A stretch of DNA of 52,459 bases from a virus, in the UHGV virus genome UHGV-0060500, one strand, 5' to 3'. Of this stretch, positions 3,952 through 33,893 are shown piece by piece (the first letter of the stretch is position 1; the number at the start of each line of letters is the position of its first letter). The notes below the pieces were generated by a model. The model made no database searches. It was not told the DNA's origin and worked only from the letters and a program-made list of their open reading frames with translations. Position numbers and translations under genes: made by a program.

Positions 3952-5367
3952 TTAAAAAGATGCGTTGTTCTGGCTGTTTCGTGGGGAGAATCTACTTGCC
4001 GCCGGACGTTGTTGCATTGACTGAATGCAAGCGGACGCCGCGCGGGCCTGGTCGCATGGGATGATGTTGCCGTTATCGTCAAACCGCTGGTAAACAGTCC
4101 CCGTTTTCCCGTGACGGTTTTTTGAAACGATGATCTCCATATATTCGCGGGCAACCGATTGTTCGTTGTAGTAGCCGTCGCGGTAGACCATGATGATCCG
4201 GTCTGCGTCCTGCTCAAGATTACCGGAATCACGCAGATCAGAATTGTTCGGGCGCTTGTTCGGTCGTTCCTCAACGCGGCGGGATAATTGCGCCAGCGCC
4301 GCCACTGGCACGCGCAACTCTTTCGCCATCATTTTCAATGACCACGACAATTGCCCTACGGCGAGATCATGACGTTCGGCCTTAGCCAGCTTCATTAACC
4401 CGATGTAGTCAATCATTACCATCCCCAGGTTAGGATGGTCCTGTTTCATCCGTTCGACGGTGGCGCGTATTTCCTCGACCGTTAACTGCGATGCGTCAAC
4501 AATCCACACATCGAGATCGGCAAGGGCACTCATTCCCTGGGCGACGTGCGCCCAACCTTCGTCATCCAGTTTTACCGGATTACGTAGGCAATCCGTTGAT
4601 AAGTTCCCAGCGCCAGCGATAGCACGTTCAGTCATCTGATCGAGCGACATTTCAAGCGTGAACAGCAAAACGCCGACCCGCTGACCTTCGCCGCCAGGGT
4701 ATGGACGTTCAGCCGCCGCGCGGGCAATTGCCAACGCCAACGCCGATTTACCAGACCCTGGGCGTCCGGCGATAAGCACCAGATCAGTAGCATTAATGCC
4801 GCCTAACATTTCGTCGAGTGGGTCAATACCTGTTTTGATGTTGTCAGAGTTCACGCCACACTCCATGCGTTTACTTAGCACTTCCGTGTATTCCTGGACC
4901 GCATCGCGCAACAGCACCGGGATAATTTGATCTTTTGTTACCTTTAATTTTGAATACCGGGAATCAAAATCTTTCATCGTCTCTTTGACGACCTCAAGTG
5001 TCCCAGTTTCCAGTTTGTAGCGCATATCGTCGATGAGTTCCAACATCTGCCGCCGCTGGTGCTCTTCACGTAGTAGCTGTGCATATCCCTTCAGGTTGGC
5101 AGCAGAAGGGCACGATCGCGCCGTTTGCATTAGCGGTACAAAGTTTTCATTACCAATCTCATCACCAACCAGTAACGCGTCGATAAGATTTCTGTTTCTG
5201 GCTTGCGCCCGGATAATTTCAAAAGCCCGCTTATATAGCGGAATAGTGAATACTTCAGGATCGAGCGTAGCAAGAACGTCTTGCGCGTTAGGTGTAAGCC
5301 CGCCTAACAGGAGTCCGCCTATCACAGCAGACTCTCGTTCTTGTCGCAGTGAGTTAACAGAATCCAT
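3952..5367 (-). CDS. Replicative DNA helicase, DnaB family
   Basis: 471 aa; Walker A GRPGSGKSALALAIA, DnaB-like N-terminal and RecA-like C-terminal regions. Confidence 0.9.
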   Translation of the reverse strand: MDSVNSLRQERESAVIGGLLLGGLTPNAQDVLATLDPEVFTIPLYKRAFEIIRAQARNRNLIDALLVGDEIGNENFVPLMQTARSCPSAANLKGYAQLLREEHQRRQMLELIDDMRYKLETGTLEVVKETMKDFDSRYSKLKVTKDQIIPVLLRDAVQEYTEVLSKRMECGVNSDNIKTGIDPLDEMLGGINATDLVLIAGRPGSGKSALALAIARAAAERPYPGGEGQRVGVLLFTLEMSLDQMTERAIAGAGNLSTDCLRNPVKLDDEGWAHVAQGMSALADLDVWIVDASQLTVEEIRATVERMKQDHPNLGMVMIDYIGLMKLAKAERHDLAVGQLSWSLKMMAKELRVPVAALAQLSRRVEERPNKRPNNSDLRDSGNLEQDADRIIMVYRDGYYNEQSVAREYMEIIVSKNRHGKTGTVYQRFDDNGNIIPCDQARAASACIQSMQQRPAASRFSPRNSQNNASF

Positions 5368-5385: not shown

Positions 5386-6504
5386 TTACAAAATGGAATA
5401 TTCAGGGTAATAAACAAAGCGCCCGATTTCCCCGTGATCAGGACTGTAAATTATTACCGCCGCCAGACGCCGCGACCGCCAGCCGCCATTCGTTGAATAA
5501 GCGTCTTTGCCCGCTAACGTGCCGTGATACTCAACAACGCCTAACGATGATTCAATCAACCGTTGGTGGTGCCAGTGCCCGCAATGAGCATAAACCGCCG
5601 CAGACTTACCGAAATCTTCCCGCCAGTCAGAGACGCAGGCAGACAACAAATTTTCTGGTTTTTTGATGGTGTGTCCGTGGTGGTAAGCAAGGAATGTTTT
5701 GCCGTACTGTGTGTGGTGTACGATAGCAGGTGACACGTCAACCGTTACGCGCGGTTCATCTTCGTAAAAAGCCGCCAGCGCAGCACGTAGCCAAATCATC
5801 CCCGACTGATCGTGATTACCTGATAATACCTGGATTTCGATTTCTTTGTGGTTTAACAACATCTTTCCTACAGCACGGCGGACTGACCGGATCGCCACAT
5901 AAACAAGTTTTGCGTAGCGTGAATCGCAATCAAGTACGTGATTGCTTGATGGCGTCACTGGCAACAGCCCATCAGTGTGAAGAACATCCCCACCGAGAAG
6001 CAATACAGCTTTTTCAGACATCGGCGCTGCGCCTACCGCGTAGTCAAAGAAATCATTTAGCACGCGTTCAGCGATCCCGGTGTCGTAGCTCTCACCGCAT
6101 TCAGCTTTATGAGCAAGCGCCCCGATATGCAGATCGAATACCGGATAAAGGGCCAGGCTTTTTTGGAAATCAATTTCCGGCACTGGCACGGCCTCCGCGC
6201 GTGGCATGTCTTCCGTGAAAGCATCGCAAGCCGCTTGCATTAGCCTTTCCATTTCATCGCGATCACGGGCTGTTTTAATCCAGCGCATAATCACATTGCC
6301 ATCCTTATCGACGAGCAATGACTCACCATTGACGCCAAAGCCCGGCGCGCGACGCGTGGATATTAAACCGCGTTTCGCCAACCGTGCGCCCAGGCGTTCG
6401 ACGTTGCGTTTTGCCATTCCATATTCTTCTGCTATTTGCTTGTAAGTTTTCCCCTTGTTGTACTCGGCGATCAGTTCCTCATCGCTGATCTTTCTTTGTG
6501 ACAT
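5386..6504 (-). CDS. HTH domain protein fused to calcineurin-like metallophosphoesterase domain (replication-module protein)
   Basis: 372 aa; N-terminal HTH (TYKQIAEEYGMAKRNVERL); phosphoesterase motifs FDLHIG, GGDVLHTDG, SGNHDQ, GHWHH. Confidence 0.6.
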   Translation of the reverse strand: MSQRKISDEELIAEYNKGKTYKQIAEEYGMAKRNVERLGARLAKRGLISTRRAPGFGVNGESLLVDKDGNVIMRWIKTARDRDEMERLMQAACDAFTEDMPRAEAVPVPEIDFQKSLALYPVFDLHIGALAHKAECGESYDTGIAERVLNDFFDYAVGAAPMSEKAVLLLGGDVLHTDGLLPVTPSSNHVLDCDSRYAKLVYVAIRSVRRAVGKMLLNHKEIEIQVLSGNHDQSGMIWLRAALAAFYEDEPRVTVDVSPAIVHHTQYGKTFLAYHHGHTIKKPENLLSACVSDWREDFGKSAAVYAHCGHWHHQRLIESSLGVVEYHGTLAGKDAYSTNGGWRSRRLAAVIIYSPDHGEIGRFVYYPEYSIL

Positions 6505-6681: not shown

Positions 6682-7818
6682 TTAGGATATAGCACAACGG
6701 AAAAACTTGCACCCCAAATAATCTTCAATGCGTTTTTGTCTTATCGCATCGCTTTTTACTTGCCGTTTGTGATGTGACTCATCAATTTCTACAGCAACGT
6801 TATTCACAGGATCGTAGCCATCAATAAAATACTTATTGCCAGCAACATCAACAGGATATTGCCTTATTAATTTAACTCCTTTTAGTTTTTCATACATAGT
6901 TAAGCCAGCATGTTCATAACGCTTCCTAATCATATTTTTACAATTATCTCTCATTTCTGATAATTTCGAGTCGTACTCCTTTTTTATTTCTTCAATTACA
7001 TTTTTATCGCTTTTTAATTCAATAAAGTTTTCTATGTCGTTATAATTCCCGCATTCAAAATTATTATTAAGACCTTTATTTTCACCCCATGCATGATACT
7101 TTTCTGCTATCTTATCGCTAATATATCTTTCATACCCATAATTTGTTTTAACTATAAAATATTCAATATTTAAATCAATGGTAAACTCATCATTATTGAG
7201 GTGTTCAGTTAAAAACGCATCTGGATCTGCAATATCGCTTGAATGGAACAACCTTACCCATAGCTTTTCTATTGATACTCCGCGAGTGACGAACAACCAT
7301 TTTTTGTACTTTTCAGCATCTTCTTTTGACACATACACAGAACATCGCCCAGGAGTATCACTCGTTTCAACATAATTGTTACACCATAAAATATAATTAT
7401 AAGCATAAGGACTATCTTTTTTGGTGTTATTTGAATATGTATTAAAGATATCTTGCAAGTCAACTAATCCACAAGATTCAATAACTGGCTTAACCCATTT
7501 TTCATTATATTCATAATGTCTATATTTACCAGGTGTAACGAATCTAATAAACGTTATGGGTGTGATATACACATCATCACCATCAACAATAAAATCCTTG
7601 TATTCCTCAAATCCGTAAAGATCAGAGTATTTAACAAATGATTTAAGTCTATCAATTTCAAGTTCAGAAACCAGATTATTAACAGACAGTAATTGCGTGT
7701 CCTTACAATTGAGTTTCATATGATAAGTAGCAATCACATATACCTCCTTTATTAATTTTCTATATAACGCCTCAGACGCGCTACAACGCAAAAATCCCAC
7801 CGCGTAACCCGTTTGCAC
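6682..7818 (-). CDS. AT-rich moron protein with C-terminal PD-(D/E)xK (DUF559/Vsr-like) nuclease-like domain; true start probably 7720-7745
   Basis: Markedly lower GC than neighbours; C-terminus YPVDVAGNKYFIDGYDPVNNVAVEIDESHHKRQ...RQKRIEDYLGCKFFR fits the restriction-endonuclease-like fold pattern; strong SD AAGGAGG near 7750. Confidence 0.55.
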   Translation of the reverse strand: MQTGYAVGFLRCSASEALYRKLIKEVYVIATYHMKLNCKDTQLLSVNNLVSELEIDRLKSFVKYSDLYGFEEYKDFIVDGDDVYITPITFIRFVTPGKYRHYEYNEKWVKPVIESCGLVDLQDIFNTYSNNTKKDSPYAYNYILWCNNYVETSDTPGRCSVYVSKEDAEKYKKWLFVTRGVSIEKLWVRLFHSSDIADPDAFLTEHLNNDEFTIDLNIEYFIVKTNYGYERYISDKIAEKYHAWGENKGLNNNFECGNYNDIENFIELKSDKNVIEEIKKEYDSKLSEMRDNCKNMIRKRYEHAGLTMYEKLKGVKLIRQYPVDVAGNKYFIDGYDPVNNVAVEIDESHHKRQVKSDAIRQKRIEDYLGCKFFRCAIS

Positions 7819-8125: not shown

Positions 8126-9067
8126 TCAAAGAGCGCCAGCGCGCGTATCACGTAGCGTTTTTGGTTTAAGCAGGAAATCAAGTGTCGCAGTGAAGCCATT
8201 GCCGAAGTAAAAATCTGAAGCCGTGTTTTTGAACGTTTCGAAGTAGGCGACAAAGCCGTTAATGCTTTTGTCTTTCAGGTAGTCAGTGAACGCATAGATC
8301 TTGCGTTCAAGATCCCGATCCAGTTCGGCAGGTGGTAACAGGCCGTCAAACGTGCTGTTAAATGCTTCCACCACGTCGGCAGCGTTTACAGTAGATGATA
8401 GCTTGCGCCATTGTTCAGCATCAGCCAGATACCCATCGAATTTAGTTACCCGGCAAATGTTAACAGGCTTAGGCACTCCACCACGGCTACGCCATTGTGT
8501 CAAAGCCCATTCGATTACTAATGTGATCTCATCCTCCGTGTATGCCTTACGTGTTTTTGTTTCTGTCAGTAGTTCGATAAATGGTTTAGCGTCACGACAC
8601 TTGCATCCTGCCTTGTCGTTGTAGAAGGCCAGGCAACGATAAGCCGCCAGATTAACCTCCCGATCTTCTTCGCTGATAGACCAGTCTTTTTCCAATACAC
8701 GGAGTGTATTGTTTTTAATGTTCTCTTTACTGGTTATATATGACTGGTTAGGGTGACTCTGTGACACTACCCCCGGTGACTCTGTGTCACTACCCCGGTG
8801 ACTCTGTGTCACTACCCCCGGTGTCACAGTGACACTACCATGCAATGACGGAAGGACTATTACATAGAAATTACTAGTTTGCTCTTTTCCTCCGATTAAG
8901 TATCTTGGTTGTTTAATCAACAACCCTTTTTCACAAAGTGAGTCTACAGCCCTCATAGCTGTTCTTTTGCTGATCTCACACTCCTTTGCTATGTGATGGT
9001 AAGAAGGGTAACACTCGCCGTTATCATTAGCGTTATCAGCTAACTTCAACAGCACTAGTTTGTGCAT
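8126..9067 (-). CDS. Replication initiation protein (lambda O-like, N-terminal winged HTH, conserved phage C-terminal domain)
   Basis: N-terminus LKLADNANDNGECYPSYHHIAKECEISKRTAMRAV typical of phage replication initiator HTH; iterons inside the gene; start taken at Met 9067 (SD GAGGT), longer ORF-track start to 9133 is unlikely. Confidence 0.75.
   Translation of the reverse strand: MHKLVLLKLADNANDNGECYPSYHHIAKECEISKRTAMRAVDSLCEKGLLIKQPRYLIGGKEQTSNFYVIVLPSLHGSVTVTPGVVTQSHRGSDTESPGVVSQSHPNQSYITSKENIKNNTLRVLEKDWSISEEDREVNLAAYRCLAFYNDKAGCKCRDAKPFIELLTETKTRKAYTEDEITLVIEWALTQWRSRGGVPKPVNICRVTKFDGYLADAEQWRKLSSTVNAADVVEAFNSTFDGLLPPAELDRDLERKIYAFTDYLKDKSINGFVAYFETFKNTASDFYFGNGFTATLDFLLKPKTLRDTRAGAL
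8752..8840. repeat. Origin iterons: three and a half copies of the 22-23 bp repeat GGTGACTCTGTGTCACTACCCC inside the O-like gene, followed by an AT-rich segment
   Basis: Direct tandem repeats each containing the inverted half-sites GTGAC/GTCAC; the AT-rich stretch 8690-8750 lies downstream in the O reading direction, as in lambda ori. Confidence 0.7.
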
Positions 9068-9232
9068 TGGGTCGCCGACCTCAGTATGGAAGACCTCTAC
9101 CATTAGCCGCATACTCATAAGCATTAACCTCATGGCGAACTAAAACATTAACTGATAAACACAGAAGAAACCTGGCAGCTGGCTGATTAGGCCGCTTCTT
9201 TTCAGTTGATGCAGTGCAGAGATAGTGTCGCG

Positions 9233-9385
9233 TTACGAAATTTCGCACATTTCCGCGATCTCTTCTGGCGTTACTTCGCTTTTGCCGTTGCATCCAGCCT
9301 TTGTTGCCAGTGCAATTAAGATGAGTTTTTGCGCCGGATCATTGTTATTCAGGCGAATATCAAAAGCCTTGCGCACGTAATACAT
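9233..9385 (-). CDS. Small protein (50 aa) paralogous to the N-terminal HTH segment of the O-like initiator
   Basis: DPAQKLILIALATKAGCNGKSEVTPEEIAEMCEIS aligns with O residues DPMHKLVLLKLADNANDNGECYPSYHHIAKECEIS; strong SD AGGAGA 8 nt upstream of the ATG at 9385. Confidence 0.45.
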   Translation of the reverse strand: MYYVRKAFDIRLNNNDPAQKLILIALATKAGCNGKSEVTPEEIAEMCEIS

Positions 9386-9427
9386 ATTCTTTTCTCCTAT
9401 GGTTAGAGTGAACGCGCGGGCGGGCAT

Positions 9428-9690
9428 CCCATTAGCATTAGATAGCAGTGACTGACCGCTGAACAGATCCCGCCGTTGCGTGATATTTGTTTTTCGCTTC
9501 GCAGCGACACCGGATTTTTAAAGAGCTTAAGGTAAGTGCCTTTTTGTGCCTTCAGTTATCTTTTTCCTTGCGTCTTTGCAAGTATGGCCTTACCTTGTCT
9601 GCAAGTTTACAAAATGGAATTTTAAGATCAAGGCTTAAAATACACGTTTTGTGACTTGCATCAAACTTTTTGAGGTTATAGGGTAGCGAC
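9428..9690. promoter_or_regulatory. Divergent immunity-region control region between the replication operon and the cI-like repressor
   Basis: 263 bp non-coding region between divergent operons; contains the repeated TGCAAGT elements and one copy of the dispersed GTTTACAAAATGG motif (9605-9617). Confidence 0.5.
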
Positions 9691-10338
9691 ATGAAAACAA
9701 AATGGTATGACTTAGCAAAGCAGCTCATGCGGGCGCAGGGCATGAGCCAGGATTCACTCGCGGATCGTATGGGGATAACTAAAGGCGGCCTGTCACACTG
9801 GCTGAACGGTCGCCGAGAGCCAAATCTTGAAGATATTGCGCGGATTATGCGCGAGCTTGGTCGTCGGCAGTTTACTGTTACACATGATGGCATGGTCATT
9901 GATGATTCTGTTTCTAATACACTTCAGGCCGTGCCGCCGCGTGATTTAGGTAGTTACCCGGTTATTGACTGGAAGGACACAGTAAACAATATGGATGACG
10001 CAAGGCGTTCAGCATTACGACACGTTACGACTAGCGTTATTTGTTCAGATGACAGTTACTGGCTGGTTGCCAAAGGTGAATCAATGAACGCGCCGCAGGG
10101 GTTGAGCATCCCGGCGGGGACGATGATACTTGTGGACCCGCACGCGCCAGCTATTGACGGCAAACTGGTTATAGCCCAGCTTGAGGAAGGGCAGATACCG
10201 ACGTTTAAACAGTTGATTATTGATGGAGGTCAAAGGCTTTTACGTTCGCTCAATCCGCTGTATCCGCCAATCCCTATGAATCCAGAATCAAAAATTATAG
10301 GCGTGGTGGTTGATGCGAAGATCGTAAACCTGCCATAA
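9691..10338 (+). CDS. cI: CI-like repressor (HTH_XRE plus S24 LexA-like peptidase domain)
   Basis: 215 aa; N-terminal HTH (QDSLADRMGITKGGLSHWLNGRREP); C-terminal GESM...K self-cleavage motif pattern. Confidence 0.85.
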   Translation: MKTKWYDLAKQLMRAQGMSQDSLADRMGITKGGLSHWLNGRREPNLEDIARIMRELGRRQFTVTHDGMVIDDSVSNTLQAVPPRDLGSYPVIDWKDTVNNMDDARRSALRHVTTSVICSDDSYWLVAKGESMNAPQGLSIPAGTMILVDPHAPAIDGKLVIAQLEEGQIPTFKQLIIDGGQRLLRSLNPLYPPIPMNPESKIIGVVVDAKIVNLP

Positions 10339-31688: not shown

Positions 31689-32574
31689 CACCGAAGACCC
31701 GACCATGACAGGGAAGTTAAGGTCGGGAGCTATTAAGCGTTTTAAAGCCTGCCTGAAGAAAGTTGCGGATCCGTATATCGCCATATTGGACAGAATCCAA
31801 TATAGCCTGGCTGTTAATAAGAAATACACCTTTCAGATTTACATGGATGAATTTCACGACATGCTGGAGGACGCAAGCGACATGATTGATGAGATATTCG
31901 AGTTAACAGACCCGGAAAACTTCTGGTTCTGGCAGAATTACGTGAAGGTGGCCTATCAGCGCGGCACGGCACAGGAATATGCCAACCTCGCTAACCAGTC
32001 TGTCACGTACTCAAGCGTTTATCCCGATGTATCTGCCGTACTATCAAGCACAACCTACCGCACGCGCCTTGCCCTGGTCCGTACCCGTGTATTTGAGGAA
32101 ATGCGCGGGCTGACAGCACAGATCAAAAAGGATATGGCCCGCCGACTAACTGAAGGCATGGCCCGTGGTTTAAACCCACTGGAAATAGCGCGCACATTGA
32201 ATCAGGAGACGCAATTACCGCTATACAGGTGTAAACGTATTGCTCGAACTGAAATATGCACAGCGTTACGCACAGCGCGTATGGATGAGGCAGAAGCGGC
32301 GACAGAAGAATTTAATCTGCGCACTATGCAAATGCACATTTCGGCATTATCACCGACTACCAGGCTATCGCACGCGCAGCGGCACGGTAAAACATACACC
32401 ATAGATGAGCAGCGCGAATGGTGGAGTAGATCCCCTAATTCAATTAACTGCAAATGTAGCACGATTACCGTATTAGTTGACGAAGACGGTAACATATTAA
32501 ACGAACGAATATTAGATCGGGCGCAAGAAAACTATAAAGTTGCGCACGCTAAATATGGCGAAGATTGGGAGTAA
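31624..32574 (+). CDS. Head morphogenesis protein (Mu F-like minor head protein); start uncertain
   Basis: 316 aa; C-terminal HGKTYT...CKCS pattern typical of the Mu F / SPP1 gp7 family; position after portal. Confidence 0.6.
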   Translation: MTMMKVKKIIRRIPPAAIMPSNTEDPTMTGKLRSGAIKRFKACLKKVADPYIAILDRIQYSLAVNKKYTFQIYMDEFHDMLEDASDMIDEIFELTDPENFWFWQNYVKVAYQRGTAQEYANLANQSVTYSSVYPDVSAVLSSTTYRTRLALVRTRVFEEMRGLTAQIKKDMARRLTEGMARGLNPLEIARTLNQETQLPLYRCKRIARTEICTALRTARMDEAEAATEEFNLRTMQMHISALSPTTRLSHAQRHGKTYTIDEQREWWSRSPNSINCKCSTITVLVDEDGNILNERILDRAQENYKVAHAKYGEDWE

Positions 32575-33893
32575 AAACCGTGAGTAAAGAACTGATTCAG
32601 GTTAATACCAAATTAACCGCTAATACCATACGCCGGGAAACTTATAACGGACGCGAGCACATTGTTGTGCCATCATATACGCTGCCATTCAATATCGTTA
32701 TGAATCGTGAATATTACCCGGAAGCTGAAATTATCGCTAATTACCAGTCACTGGAGGGTACGCTTGCCCCGCTGGGCCATCCTACCGTTGACGGTAAATT
32801 TGTTTCAGCATTTAGCCCGGAAGGATTAAACACGGGTTTTTGTGGTGCGTGGAACAGAAACGTTGAGTTACGCGGCAACCGTGTTTATGTGGAAAAATGG
32901 GTGGATGTGGAAACCGCCAGCCATTCAAGCCAGGGCCGCGAATTATTAGCCCGACTGGAAGCACTGGAGAAAGGAGAAAGCAAAGATCCTATCTGGTCGT
33001 CCGTCGCTGTATATCGCCAGCGTATGCCAGCCACCGAAAAAATGAAAGCCCAGGGTGCTGACCATGTAGTGAAAATCATGTCGATCGACCATGACGCTAT
33101 CTTGCTGCATGAGCCGCCAGCCGCTTCGCCGGAACAGGGCGTAGGCTTAATGGTTAATACCGACCAGGCGAAGCCGTTAATGGCGGTGGCGATGAAAGAA
33201 AACAGCTACAGAACACTTGAGAAACAATTAACAGACGCGGCGCGGGATTTATTCCCTGATGCTGATTATGTGTATGTGGTGGACTTCACTGATAAAGAGG
33301 TGACGATCGCCACTAATGCGGAAAGTGCTCAAGTTTGCGCATATGAAAAACAGGCTGATAAAATTATTCTCAATAATGGCGAGCTTGCAACCAACGAGGA
33401 AAGTAAATCATGGTTTGCTCAGTTCGCTGAACACCTTTCTAATCTTTTCTCCCTGAATGAAAAAATTAAGGCCAATAAATCGGAGGACGATCCCATGCCT
33501 TTGACCAAAGAAGAACGCGCCGAACTGGTAAAAGAAATTAACGAAGGCTTAGCCGCCAACATCGCTAATGCAGTAGCAGAGGCATTAAAACCAGTACAGG
33601 CAAGCGTAGAAGAATTACAGACCAACCAAGAAGAATTACAGACCAACCAAGAAGAATTACAGACCAACCAGAAAGCAATTAAAGAAGAAATTGCAGCAAA
33701 CGCAGATAAAGAAGTAGCAGAAAAACGCGCCGCAGTAGCAAAAGTTCACGGCGAAATTGTTGCTAACGCATTAAGCGGTGAAGCGTTAGACGCAATGTTT
33801 AAATCCCTGGGTAAAGCAGCACCAATGGCAGCAAACTCAGCCGCTGGTGGAAATAAACCTGCCACCCCTGACATTAACAACTATTTCGCATAA
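32565..33893 (+). CDS. Putative head scaffolding protein with coiled-coil C-terminal half
   Basis: 442 aa; position between the morphogenesis and capsid genes; (EELQTNQ)x3 heptad tandem repeat. Confidence 0.45.
   Translation: MGVKTVSKELIQVNTKLTANTIRRETYNGREHIVVPSYTLPFNIVMNREYYPEAEIIANYQSLEGTLAPLGHPTVDGKFVSAFSPEGLNTGFCGAWNRNVELRGNRVYVEKWVDVETASHSSQGRELLARLEALEKGESKDPIWSSVAVYRQRMPATEKMKAQGADHVVKIMSIDHDAILLHEPPAASPEQGVGLMVNTDQAKPLMAVAMKENSYRTLEKQLTDAARDLFPDADYVYVVDFTDKEVTIATNAESAQVCAYEKQADKIILNNGELATNEESKSWFAQFAEHLSNLFSLNEKIKANKSEDDPMPLTKEERAELVKEINEGLAANIANAVAEALKPVQASVEELQTNQEELQTNQEELQTNQKAIKEEIAANADKEVAEKRAAVAKVHGEIVANALSGEALDAMFKSLGKAAPMAANSAAGGNKPATPDINNYFA
33609..33671 (+). repeat. 3 x 21 bp perfect/near-perfect tandem repeat GAAGAATTACAGACCAACCAA inside the scaffold gene
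   Basis: Direct tandem repeat read from the sequence; in frame (EELQTNQ). Confidence 0.8.

Follow-up and report, generated by a model that had tools for sequence, protein, structure and literature searches.

Positions 8693-8838 of UHGV virus genome UHGV-0060500 hold a cluster of direct repeats, short boxes and a palindrome, situated within the gene for a presumed replication initiator protein. The genome, 52,459 nucleotides (nt) in length and analysed here as a single stretch (the window), belongs to a temperate Escherichia coli phage (a coliphage) of the mEpimmI group. We consider it very likely that 8693-8838 is the origin of bidirectional (theta) replication of this phage, lying in that part of the initiator gene which encodes a disordered linker. 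The conclusion that this is a DNA-level element, rather than a coding repeat, is drawn from a repeat unit that is not a multiple of three, copy-number changes in 45-bp steps, concerted change among the copies, a match between the copies and the recognition helix of the initiator, sequence conservation and a palindrome that is retained across reading frames. Sequence comparison across more than 120 related loci supports an element of this kind that is specific to its initiator. No origin is marked in the GenBank records of related phages and none is mentioned in the 2025 description of the mEpimmI group. The element is very probably a conventional in-gene iteron origin, albeit an unannotated one, in which possibly only a core made up of the boxes and palindrome goes beyond the paradigm set by lambda and P22.

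The initiator gene

The repeats lie in a minus-strand open reading frame (ORF) listed at 8126..9133. The most likely start codon is the ATG at 9118, chosen because the consensus N-terminus of the protein family is MSMxLM and a GAGG sequence lies 9 nt upstream, and this gives a predicted protein of 330 amino acids. At the DNA level the ORF is 95% identical to the mEp010 gene annotated as encoding 'DNA replication protein O' and 88% identical to the mEp021 gene for a 'putative replication protein'. Residues 22-72 match the Pfam family HTH_36 (E = 5e-15), the sole Pfam family found there, and the protein also matches PHROG 'replication initiation O-like' families. A sequence search of the PDB returned no match. 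An AlphaFold2 model with a mean predicted local distance difference test score (pLDDT) of 58 was used to define domain boundaries only. In this model the linker (residues 90-149) has pLDDT values below 50 and is without predicted secondary structure, the C-domain begins at about residue 150 and the recognition helix corresponds to the second helix of the helix-turn-helix.

An array of iterons in the linker-coding DNA

The array is made up of four tandem repeats of 22-23 bp, each with a 19-nt core (iterons 1-4, numbered in gene order; Table 1). Tandem Repeats Finder reports the array at 8752-8839 with a period of 23, 3.9 copies and a score of 134, and a search with a 22-mer finds three occurrences at three or fewer mismatches, compared with none in 100 shuffles. 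Both methods confirm what had been claimed in an earlier, sequence-only reading of this DNA, namely that repeats are present inside the O-like ORF. The same reading counted three and a half copies; the repeats are real but number four, the additional one (8820-8838, iteron 1) being a variant with an inverted centre. It also had the repeats encoding the peptide GVVTQSH. This holds in part, as GVVTQSH and GVVSQSH are each encoded once, but alternate copies are read in the other frame, as GSVTVTP and GSDTESP. The mean unit of 22.5 bp places successive copies in frames 1, 0, 1 and 0, so that the period of the peptide is 15 amino acids.

The iteron cores start 23, 22 and 23 nt apart, with runs of G between them, and every iteron contains an inverted GTGAC/GTCAC pair, 10 bp (one helical turn) apart. 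The array begins at gene nt 281 and occupies residues 94-122, which places it between the HTH_36 domain and the C-domain. Mismatch and motif searches found no further iteron copies elsewhere in the window, and Tandem Repeats Finder detected no other iteron-like array there outside coding peptide repeats. An example of the latter is found at 33608-33685, inside a 442 amino acid ORF (32565-33893), where 3.7 copies of a 21-bp unit encode EELQTNQ heptads. As a rival candidate for the origin this segment was discarded, being an in-frame heptad repeat within the ORF; with its coiled-coil-like peptide, it offers a contrast to the frame-shifting iterons. Searching for DnaA boxes gave a single TTWTNCACA sequence at 8927, and the five occurrences in the window, against about three expected, are not significant.

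An AT-rich tract with boxes and a palindrome

The AT-rich stretch that the sequence-only reading had placed after the repeats, in the direction of transcription, is present, if modest. Nearest-neighbour calculation identifies 8702-8741 as the least stable 40 bp of the initiator gene (top 0.7% of the 52-kb window), and the least stable 30- and 40-bp segments of the gene fall in the top 0.5-0.7% of the whole window. By composition, the 40-bp segment at 8707-8746 is 25% GC, which is the 1.6th percentile of the window. The same stretch holds two AACCAGTMA boxes and a palindrome, on which the sequence-only reading did not remark. The boxes start at gene nt 370 and 384 and are followed by an A-rich core and then by the palindrome, which occurs once in the window and is predicted to form a hairpin in single-stranded DNA of -5.5 kcal/mol (z -5.4).

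Two features of this region point to constraint at the level of DNA. The best-conserved 30-nt bin of the gene among divergent relatives is 8699-8728 (identity 0.98, with 0.93 in the flanking bins), although what it encodes is linker with pLDDT below 50. The palindrome is also widely retained: arms of the form ATACAC-N3-GTGTAT, with a variable centre, are present in 44 of 49 related loci and in phages with either of two types of initiator N-domain. With an N-domain of the other type the reading frame through the palindrome is different (IYTSCIV versus NTLRVLE), and the palindrome stands out as an island of identity approximately 50 bp ahead of the shared C-terminal homology.

On the plus strand, 8693-8720 comprises the palindrome followed by TTTTTAAT and resembles an intrinsic terminator in antisense orientation. 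In lambda and in the type-2 relatives (those with a swapped N-domain), too, a T-rich run comes after the palindrome when the antisense strand is read. A scan for promoters and terminators gave regional counts of 4, compared with 2.6 in shuffles, which is not above chance, and identified no antisense promoter. Rfam scans of the whole window (at the gathering threshold) and of 8400-9700 (at E-values up to 1) found no RNA family, and the palindrome and repeats are thus not explained by any known RNA.

Iterons vary in step with the recognition helix

Natural variants of the initiator are 315, 330 or 345 amino acids in length, corresponding to one, two or three 15-residue units and hence to two, four or six iterons. 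Copy number always changes by steps of 45 bp (15 amino acids) and, within any one phage, all copies share the bases that are specific to their class. Three iteron classes (A, B and C; Table 1) match three variants of the recognition helix in 59 of 59, 25 of 25 and 33 of 33 cases, with a fourth pairing seen once, so that the association is perfect across 118 of 118 homologues. Over residues 1-93, initiators of different classes depart from one another at residue 16, within residues 41-68 and at residue 93, and nowhere else. One natural variant differs from class A solely by R52S and S60A, yet carries class C iterons. Both R52 and S60 lie inside helix 51-63 of the AlphaFold2 model and are candidate specificity residues.

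A wider family of HTH_36 initiators

The N-domain is 47-55% identical to those of 'O-like' proteins from E. coli phage Ayreon, the Shiga toxin (Stx) phage Min27, Vibrio phage D121 and Aggregatibacter phage S1249, and the genes for all four contain repeats of 21-24 bp, in 3-4.7 copies, at residues ~88-124. Scanning IMG/VR extended this to 78 distinct genes with an HTH_36 N-domain. Every one has 21-24 bp repeats (2-8.3 copies) beginning at gene nt 263-311, and the sequences of the repeats differ among the 78 genes while their position stays the same.

Immediately after the array, all 78 family genes have two or three AAYCAGTMA boxes. The boxes sit in the stretch CCAGAAYCAGTCACTCTTYTGAACCAGTCAAWGAAYCAGTCA, which is 90-100% conserved at the nucleotide level among E. 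coli, Vibrio and Aggregatibacter phages, whereas the N-domains are only ~50% identical in protein sequence. In most family genes the boxes are found in frames 2, 1 and 1 with spacings of 17 and 12 nt. The window has undergone small indels that reduce the 17-nt spacing to 14 nt and place its boxes in frames 0 and 2. That the boxes are kept across frames indicates a DNA-level constraint. With its homologous N-domain, repeats and boxes, the window initiator fits this O-like family, characterised by the sequence 'MSMxLM...KLVLxKLADNA'. The P22 origin has one AATCAGTCA box, at the junction between its repeats and AT-rich DNA (L055, nt 1035). In literature searches the AACCAGTCA box turned up in unrelated primers only, with no description of the motif. 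We suggest, tentatively and at rather less than even odds, that the boxes and palindrome form a previously undescribed origin core that is independent of initiator specificity.

Exchange of initiator modules and their presumed origins

Most of the IMG/VR relatives, as well as MagusPhagus and mEp515, have an unrelated N-domain of the Lin1244_N type joined to the same C-terminal half. Among the IMG/VR loci this type (L004, L005, L012-L049) is commoner than that found in the window. The exchange junction falls at residues 141-155, just past the origin, and at the equivalent place the Lin1244_N type has 11-bp repeats, either AAAGGGTCATG in 4.2 copies or AACCATGGCAC in 4.7, followed by a GAA-rich A tract. 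On these comparisons the N-domain, repeats and AT-rich tract move together when exchanged, in keeping with the classical view of lambdoid phages. Combined with the similarity of the C-terminal 97 amino acids of the initiator to the C-terminus of P22 gp18 (33% identity, E = 3e-14) and of the helicase to P22 gp12 (56% identity over 453 amino acids), this describes a module that is, as judged from its sequence, a mosaic of an HTH_36 DNA-binding half with its own iterons and a helicase-recruiting half of the P22 gp18/gp12 type.

In some relatives (L010, from IMG/VR, and the proteins P0082, P0104 and P0115) the iterons and boxes are retained, whereas the sequence beyond ...AGTAAAGAGAA is of another kind. 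This right half contains P22-like TA(T)CCCCCT repeats and encodes the peptide KDIPPY... The differing right half implies a recombination junction inside the AT-rich tract, and that either half of the origin, left or right, is exchangeable.

A small winged-helix gene is located between the repressor and initiator genes. In mEp010, mEp013 and mEp021 it encodes 81 amino acids, and this HTH_36-like product is paralogous to the initiator N-domain. The window copy (9233-9385, minus strand) has acquired an ochre stop (TTA to TAA at 9233-9235) after codon 50, ahead of the recognition helix. The same stop allele is present in four of four independent public contigs that encode an identical initiator, which argues for a natural lineage rather than a sequencing error, and in these contigs the iterons are intact and identical.

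Comparison with lambda, P22 and Stx phage origins

The organisation of the lambda origin, to which the sequence-only reading had likened that of the window, was measured with the same script. In lambda the iterons occupy residues 117-145 of O, with spacings of 20, 24 and 23 nt and in frames 0, 2, 2 and 1, and the next 40 bp are 20% GC and A-rich on the coding strand; by the same measure the window array occupies residues 94-122, with spacings of 23, 22 and 23 nt, and is followed by 40 bp of 25% GC. The lambda values are in line with how lambdoid origins have been described in the literature (PMC7466680). The side-by-side match therefore supports the likeness. In both phages the initiator gene contains four dyad-symmetric iterons of about 19 bp, placed where it encodes the linker that joins the DNA-binding domain to the partner-binding domain. 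The iterons are spaced 20-24 bp apart in mixed frames; ~40 bp of A-rich DNA come next, with an inverted repeat beyond, and each origin belongs to an early rightward operon that has the repressor gene as its neighbour. The minimal unwinding-competent lambda fragment is given as two iterons plus the adjacent AT-rich tract, at least as summarised in PMC7466680 with reference to Dodson et al. 1986, and the natural two-iteron variants described above fit this minimum.

The labels 'lambda-type' and 'O-like' are apt for the organisation only. Lambda O and the window initiator show no significant similarity (BLASTP E = 0.095; hhalign probability 1%) and, whilst lambda O and P22 gp18 both match PF04492 (Phage_rep_O) in the same kind of scan, the window initiator N-domain matches HTH_36 and not Phage_rep_O. 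Membership of the lambda O family was accordingly rejected. An HHpred analysis has linked the N-terminus of O to HTH_36 (PMC5509034), and for this reason a remote kinship at the level of the fold is possible. The window phage also differs from lambda in lacking a P-type loader of the host DnaB, having a DnaB-type helicase of its own, in its unrelated iteron sequence and in having two AACCAGTMA boxes between the iterons and the A-rich core, where lambda has none.

P22 shares with the window an origin inside the initiator gene, in which repeats give way to an A-rich tract and, past it, a palindrome, in addition to a gp12-type helicase and a gp18-like C-terminus. The N-domain of gp18, however, is Phage_rep_O, the repeats are different, and genes 18 and 12 are adjacent. 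The HTH_36 proteins of Ayreon, Min27 and the 'Eru' type resemble the window initiator in N-domain, repeat position and AAYCAGTMA boxes, and differ from it in their C-domains, helicase or loader partners and box spacing (17 and 12 nt versus 14 nt). HTH_36 proteins are listed in a survey of Stx phage replication regions, according to which nothing is known of Eru phage replication (PMC8951638). The origins of the Stx phages 933W and P27 have six iterons (PMC7466680). Variation in iteron number among close relatives is common to these phages and to those described here (two, four or six), but the 933W and P27 origins go with true lambda O homologues and have lambda-like iterons.

Proposed mechanism and alternative explanations

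By analogy with lambda and P22, initiation may proceed as follows. Dimers of the initiator N-terminal winged-helix domain would bind the four dyad-symmetric 19-bp iterons, which are about two helical turns apart, and the nucleoprotein complex so formed would stress and open the adjacent A+T-rich tract at 8702-8750. The P22 gp18-like C-domain of the initiator would then recruit the phage DnaB-type helicase, after which the host primase and polymerase would take over.

A number of observations weigh against this interpretation. Binding, unwinding and helicase recruitment in an mEpimmI phage are extrapolated from lambda and P22. With 25-29% GC, at the 1.6th-5th percentile for GC, the AT-rich tract stands out to a moderate degree only, and AT content is fairly high on the 5' side of the repeats (8840-8930) as well. 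Two ORFs, encoding 378 and 372 amino acids, separate the initiator and helicase genes, unlike the arrangement in P22. In related phages the helix and iteron sites are 80-240 bp apart, and genetic linkage contributes to their perfect association. The small upstream winged-helix gene, lastly, is swapped along with the N-domain in the type-2 relatives, as a result of which the N-domain swap alone cannot tell which of the two proteins binds the repeats. The claim in the sequence-only reading that the repeats 'pin down' the origin was for this DNA too strongly worded, even though the comparisons made here favour an origin at this site.

A different view would be that the iterons bind the initiator for purposes of control, whether autoregulation, titration and handcuffing or a roadblock to transcription downstream, with the true origin elsewhere. 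Iterons have control functions in plasmids, unwinding at the array is presumed by analogy, and the minimum of the cumulative GC skew, at 9397, is away from the repeats. This minimum falls where the divergently transcribed repressor gene and early operon meet, which makes it uninformative, and it was dropped as a mark of the origin. Against control as the only function, an easily melted and highly conserved tract adjoins the repeats, the window has neither a second array nor stray iteron copies, and the combination of iterons with A-rich DNA recurs in all related modules. We regard a purely regulatory array as unlikely. Still less probable, in our estimation, is that the repeats are a regulatory site for the small winged-helix protein. 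Its paralogy to the initiator N-domain and the co-exchange of its gene with N-domain and repeats speak for this. Across iteron classes, however, it shows only two residue differences, both outside the helix-turn-helix, compared with around ten in the helix-turn-helix of the initiator. In the window lineage, moreover, the protein is truncated before its recognition helix whilst the iterons remain intact in all four contigs, and the operator region (9428-9690) is without iteron-like sites.

The remaining alternative is that slippage generated the repeats, which would serve only as coding sequence for a flexible linker and lack a function as DNA. A linker predicted to be disordered would tolerate such repeats, and copy number does vary among relatives. 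A unit that is not a multiple of three and is read in two frames, with dyad symmetry in every copy, is hard to reconcile with this, as are the change of all copies together in step with the recognition helix, the retention of the array at one position in 78 of 78 distant genes with differing repeat sequences, and the finding that the adjacent linker-coding DNA is the best-conserved part of the gene. We attach very little weight to slippage, and an origin of replication at 8693-8838 is the explanation that we favour.

Features of the region and neighbouring genes

Table 1. Features of the putative origin and its associated genes, with the iteron classes of related phages
Feature	Position	Strand	Sequence	Remarks
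Helicase gene	3952..5367	-		phage DnaB-type replicative helicase, 471 amino acids; Pfam DnaB_C, E = 1e-75; presumed partner of the initiator C-domain
Initiator ('O-like') gene	8126..9118	-		330 amino acids; N-terminal winged helix-turn-helix, disordered linker (~90-149), helical C-terminal domain
Palindrome	8693..8711	.	CAATACAC-TCC-GTGTATTG	far side of AT-rich tract; single occurrence in window; arms at 8695-8700 and 8704-8709
AT-rich tract	8702..8750	.		A-rich on coding strand, 29% GC; presumed DNA unwinding element (stability and conservation)
Box 2	8727..8735	-	AACCAGTAA	second AACCAGTMA box
Box 1	8741..8749	-	AACCAGTCA	9-mer directly after the array; first of the pair
Iteron 4	8752..8770	-	GTAGTGTCACAGAGTCACC	adjoins AT-rich tract
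Iteron 3	8775..8793	-	GTAGTGACACAGAGTCACC	identical to iteron 2; Tandem Repeats Finder and mismatch search
Iteron 2	8797..8815	-	GTAGTGACACAGAGTCACC	Tandem Repeats Finder and mismatch search
Iteron 1	8820..8838	-	GTAGTGTCACTGTGACACC	near-palindromic variant with inverted centre
Predicted recognition helix	8930..8968	-	KRTAMRAVDSLCE	initiator residues 51-63; AlphaFold2 helix, second of the helix-turn-helix
Iteron class A			..GACACAGAGTCACC	
Iteron class B			..GGCACAAAGCAACC	
Iteron class C			..GTCAGAGAGACACC	also written GTAGTGTCAGAGAGACACC
mEp021-class iterons			GTAGTGGCAcAaAGCAACC	

The two ORFs that lie between the initiator and helicase genes differ in character. The 378 amino acid ORF (6682-7818, minus strand), located between the initiator gene and the conserved gene for the 372 amino acid protein, has a GC content of 32%, compared with a window mean of 46%, and its C-terminus gives weak matches to DUF559, to PvuRts1I-like proteins and to the PADLOC 'mREase_II' endonuclease. 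Other genes occupy the same slot in relatives: a 495 amino acid zinc-ribbon protein in mEp021, a 178 amino acid ORF in mEp013 and small hypothetical ORFs in mEp010. The slot looks like a hotspot for accessory or defence genes.

The 372 amino acid protein (5386-6504, minus strand) has its gene between those for initiator and helicase in every relative. The family that it matches is PHROG 704 ('DNA repair exonuclease', E = 9e-137), with no Pfam match, and it has an HTH-like segment at its N-terminus and metallophosphatase-like motifs (GDxxH, GNHD). This protein may form part of the replication module.

Significance

If correct, our interpretation assigns to 8693-8838 the replication origin of a prevalent group of gut phages, the mEpimmI coliphages described in 2025. 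The same reading would extend to HTH_36 'O-like' initiators, a large family with members in Stx phages whose mode of replication is reportedly unknown. The natural iteron classes offer a ready comparison of specificity, in which an initiator carrying R52S and S60A could be set against GAGTCACC versus GAGACACC iterons. In practical terms, the region is a candidate minimal replicon and could serve as a target for interfering with prophage induction. Should the boxes and palindrome prove to be a core element, they would represent a helicase-loading, priming or host-factor site common to hundreds of HTH_36-type phage origins, with a range that takes in non-lambdoid Stx phages whose replication is uncharacterised.

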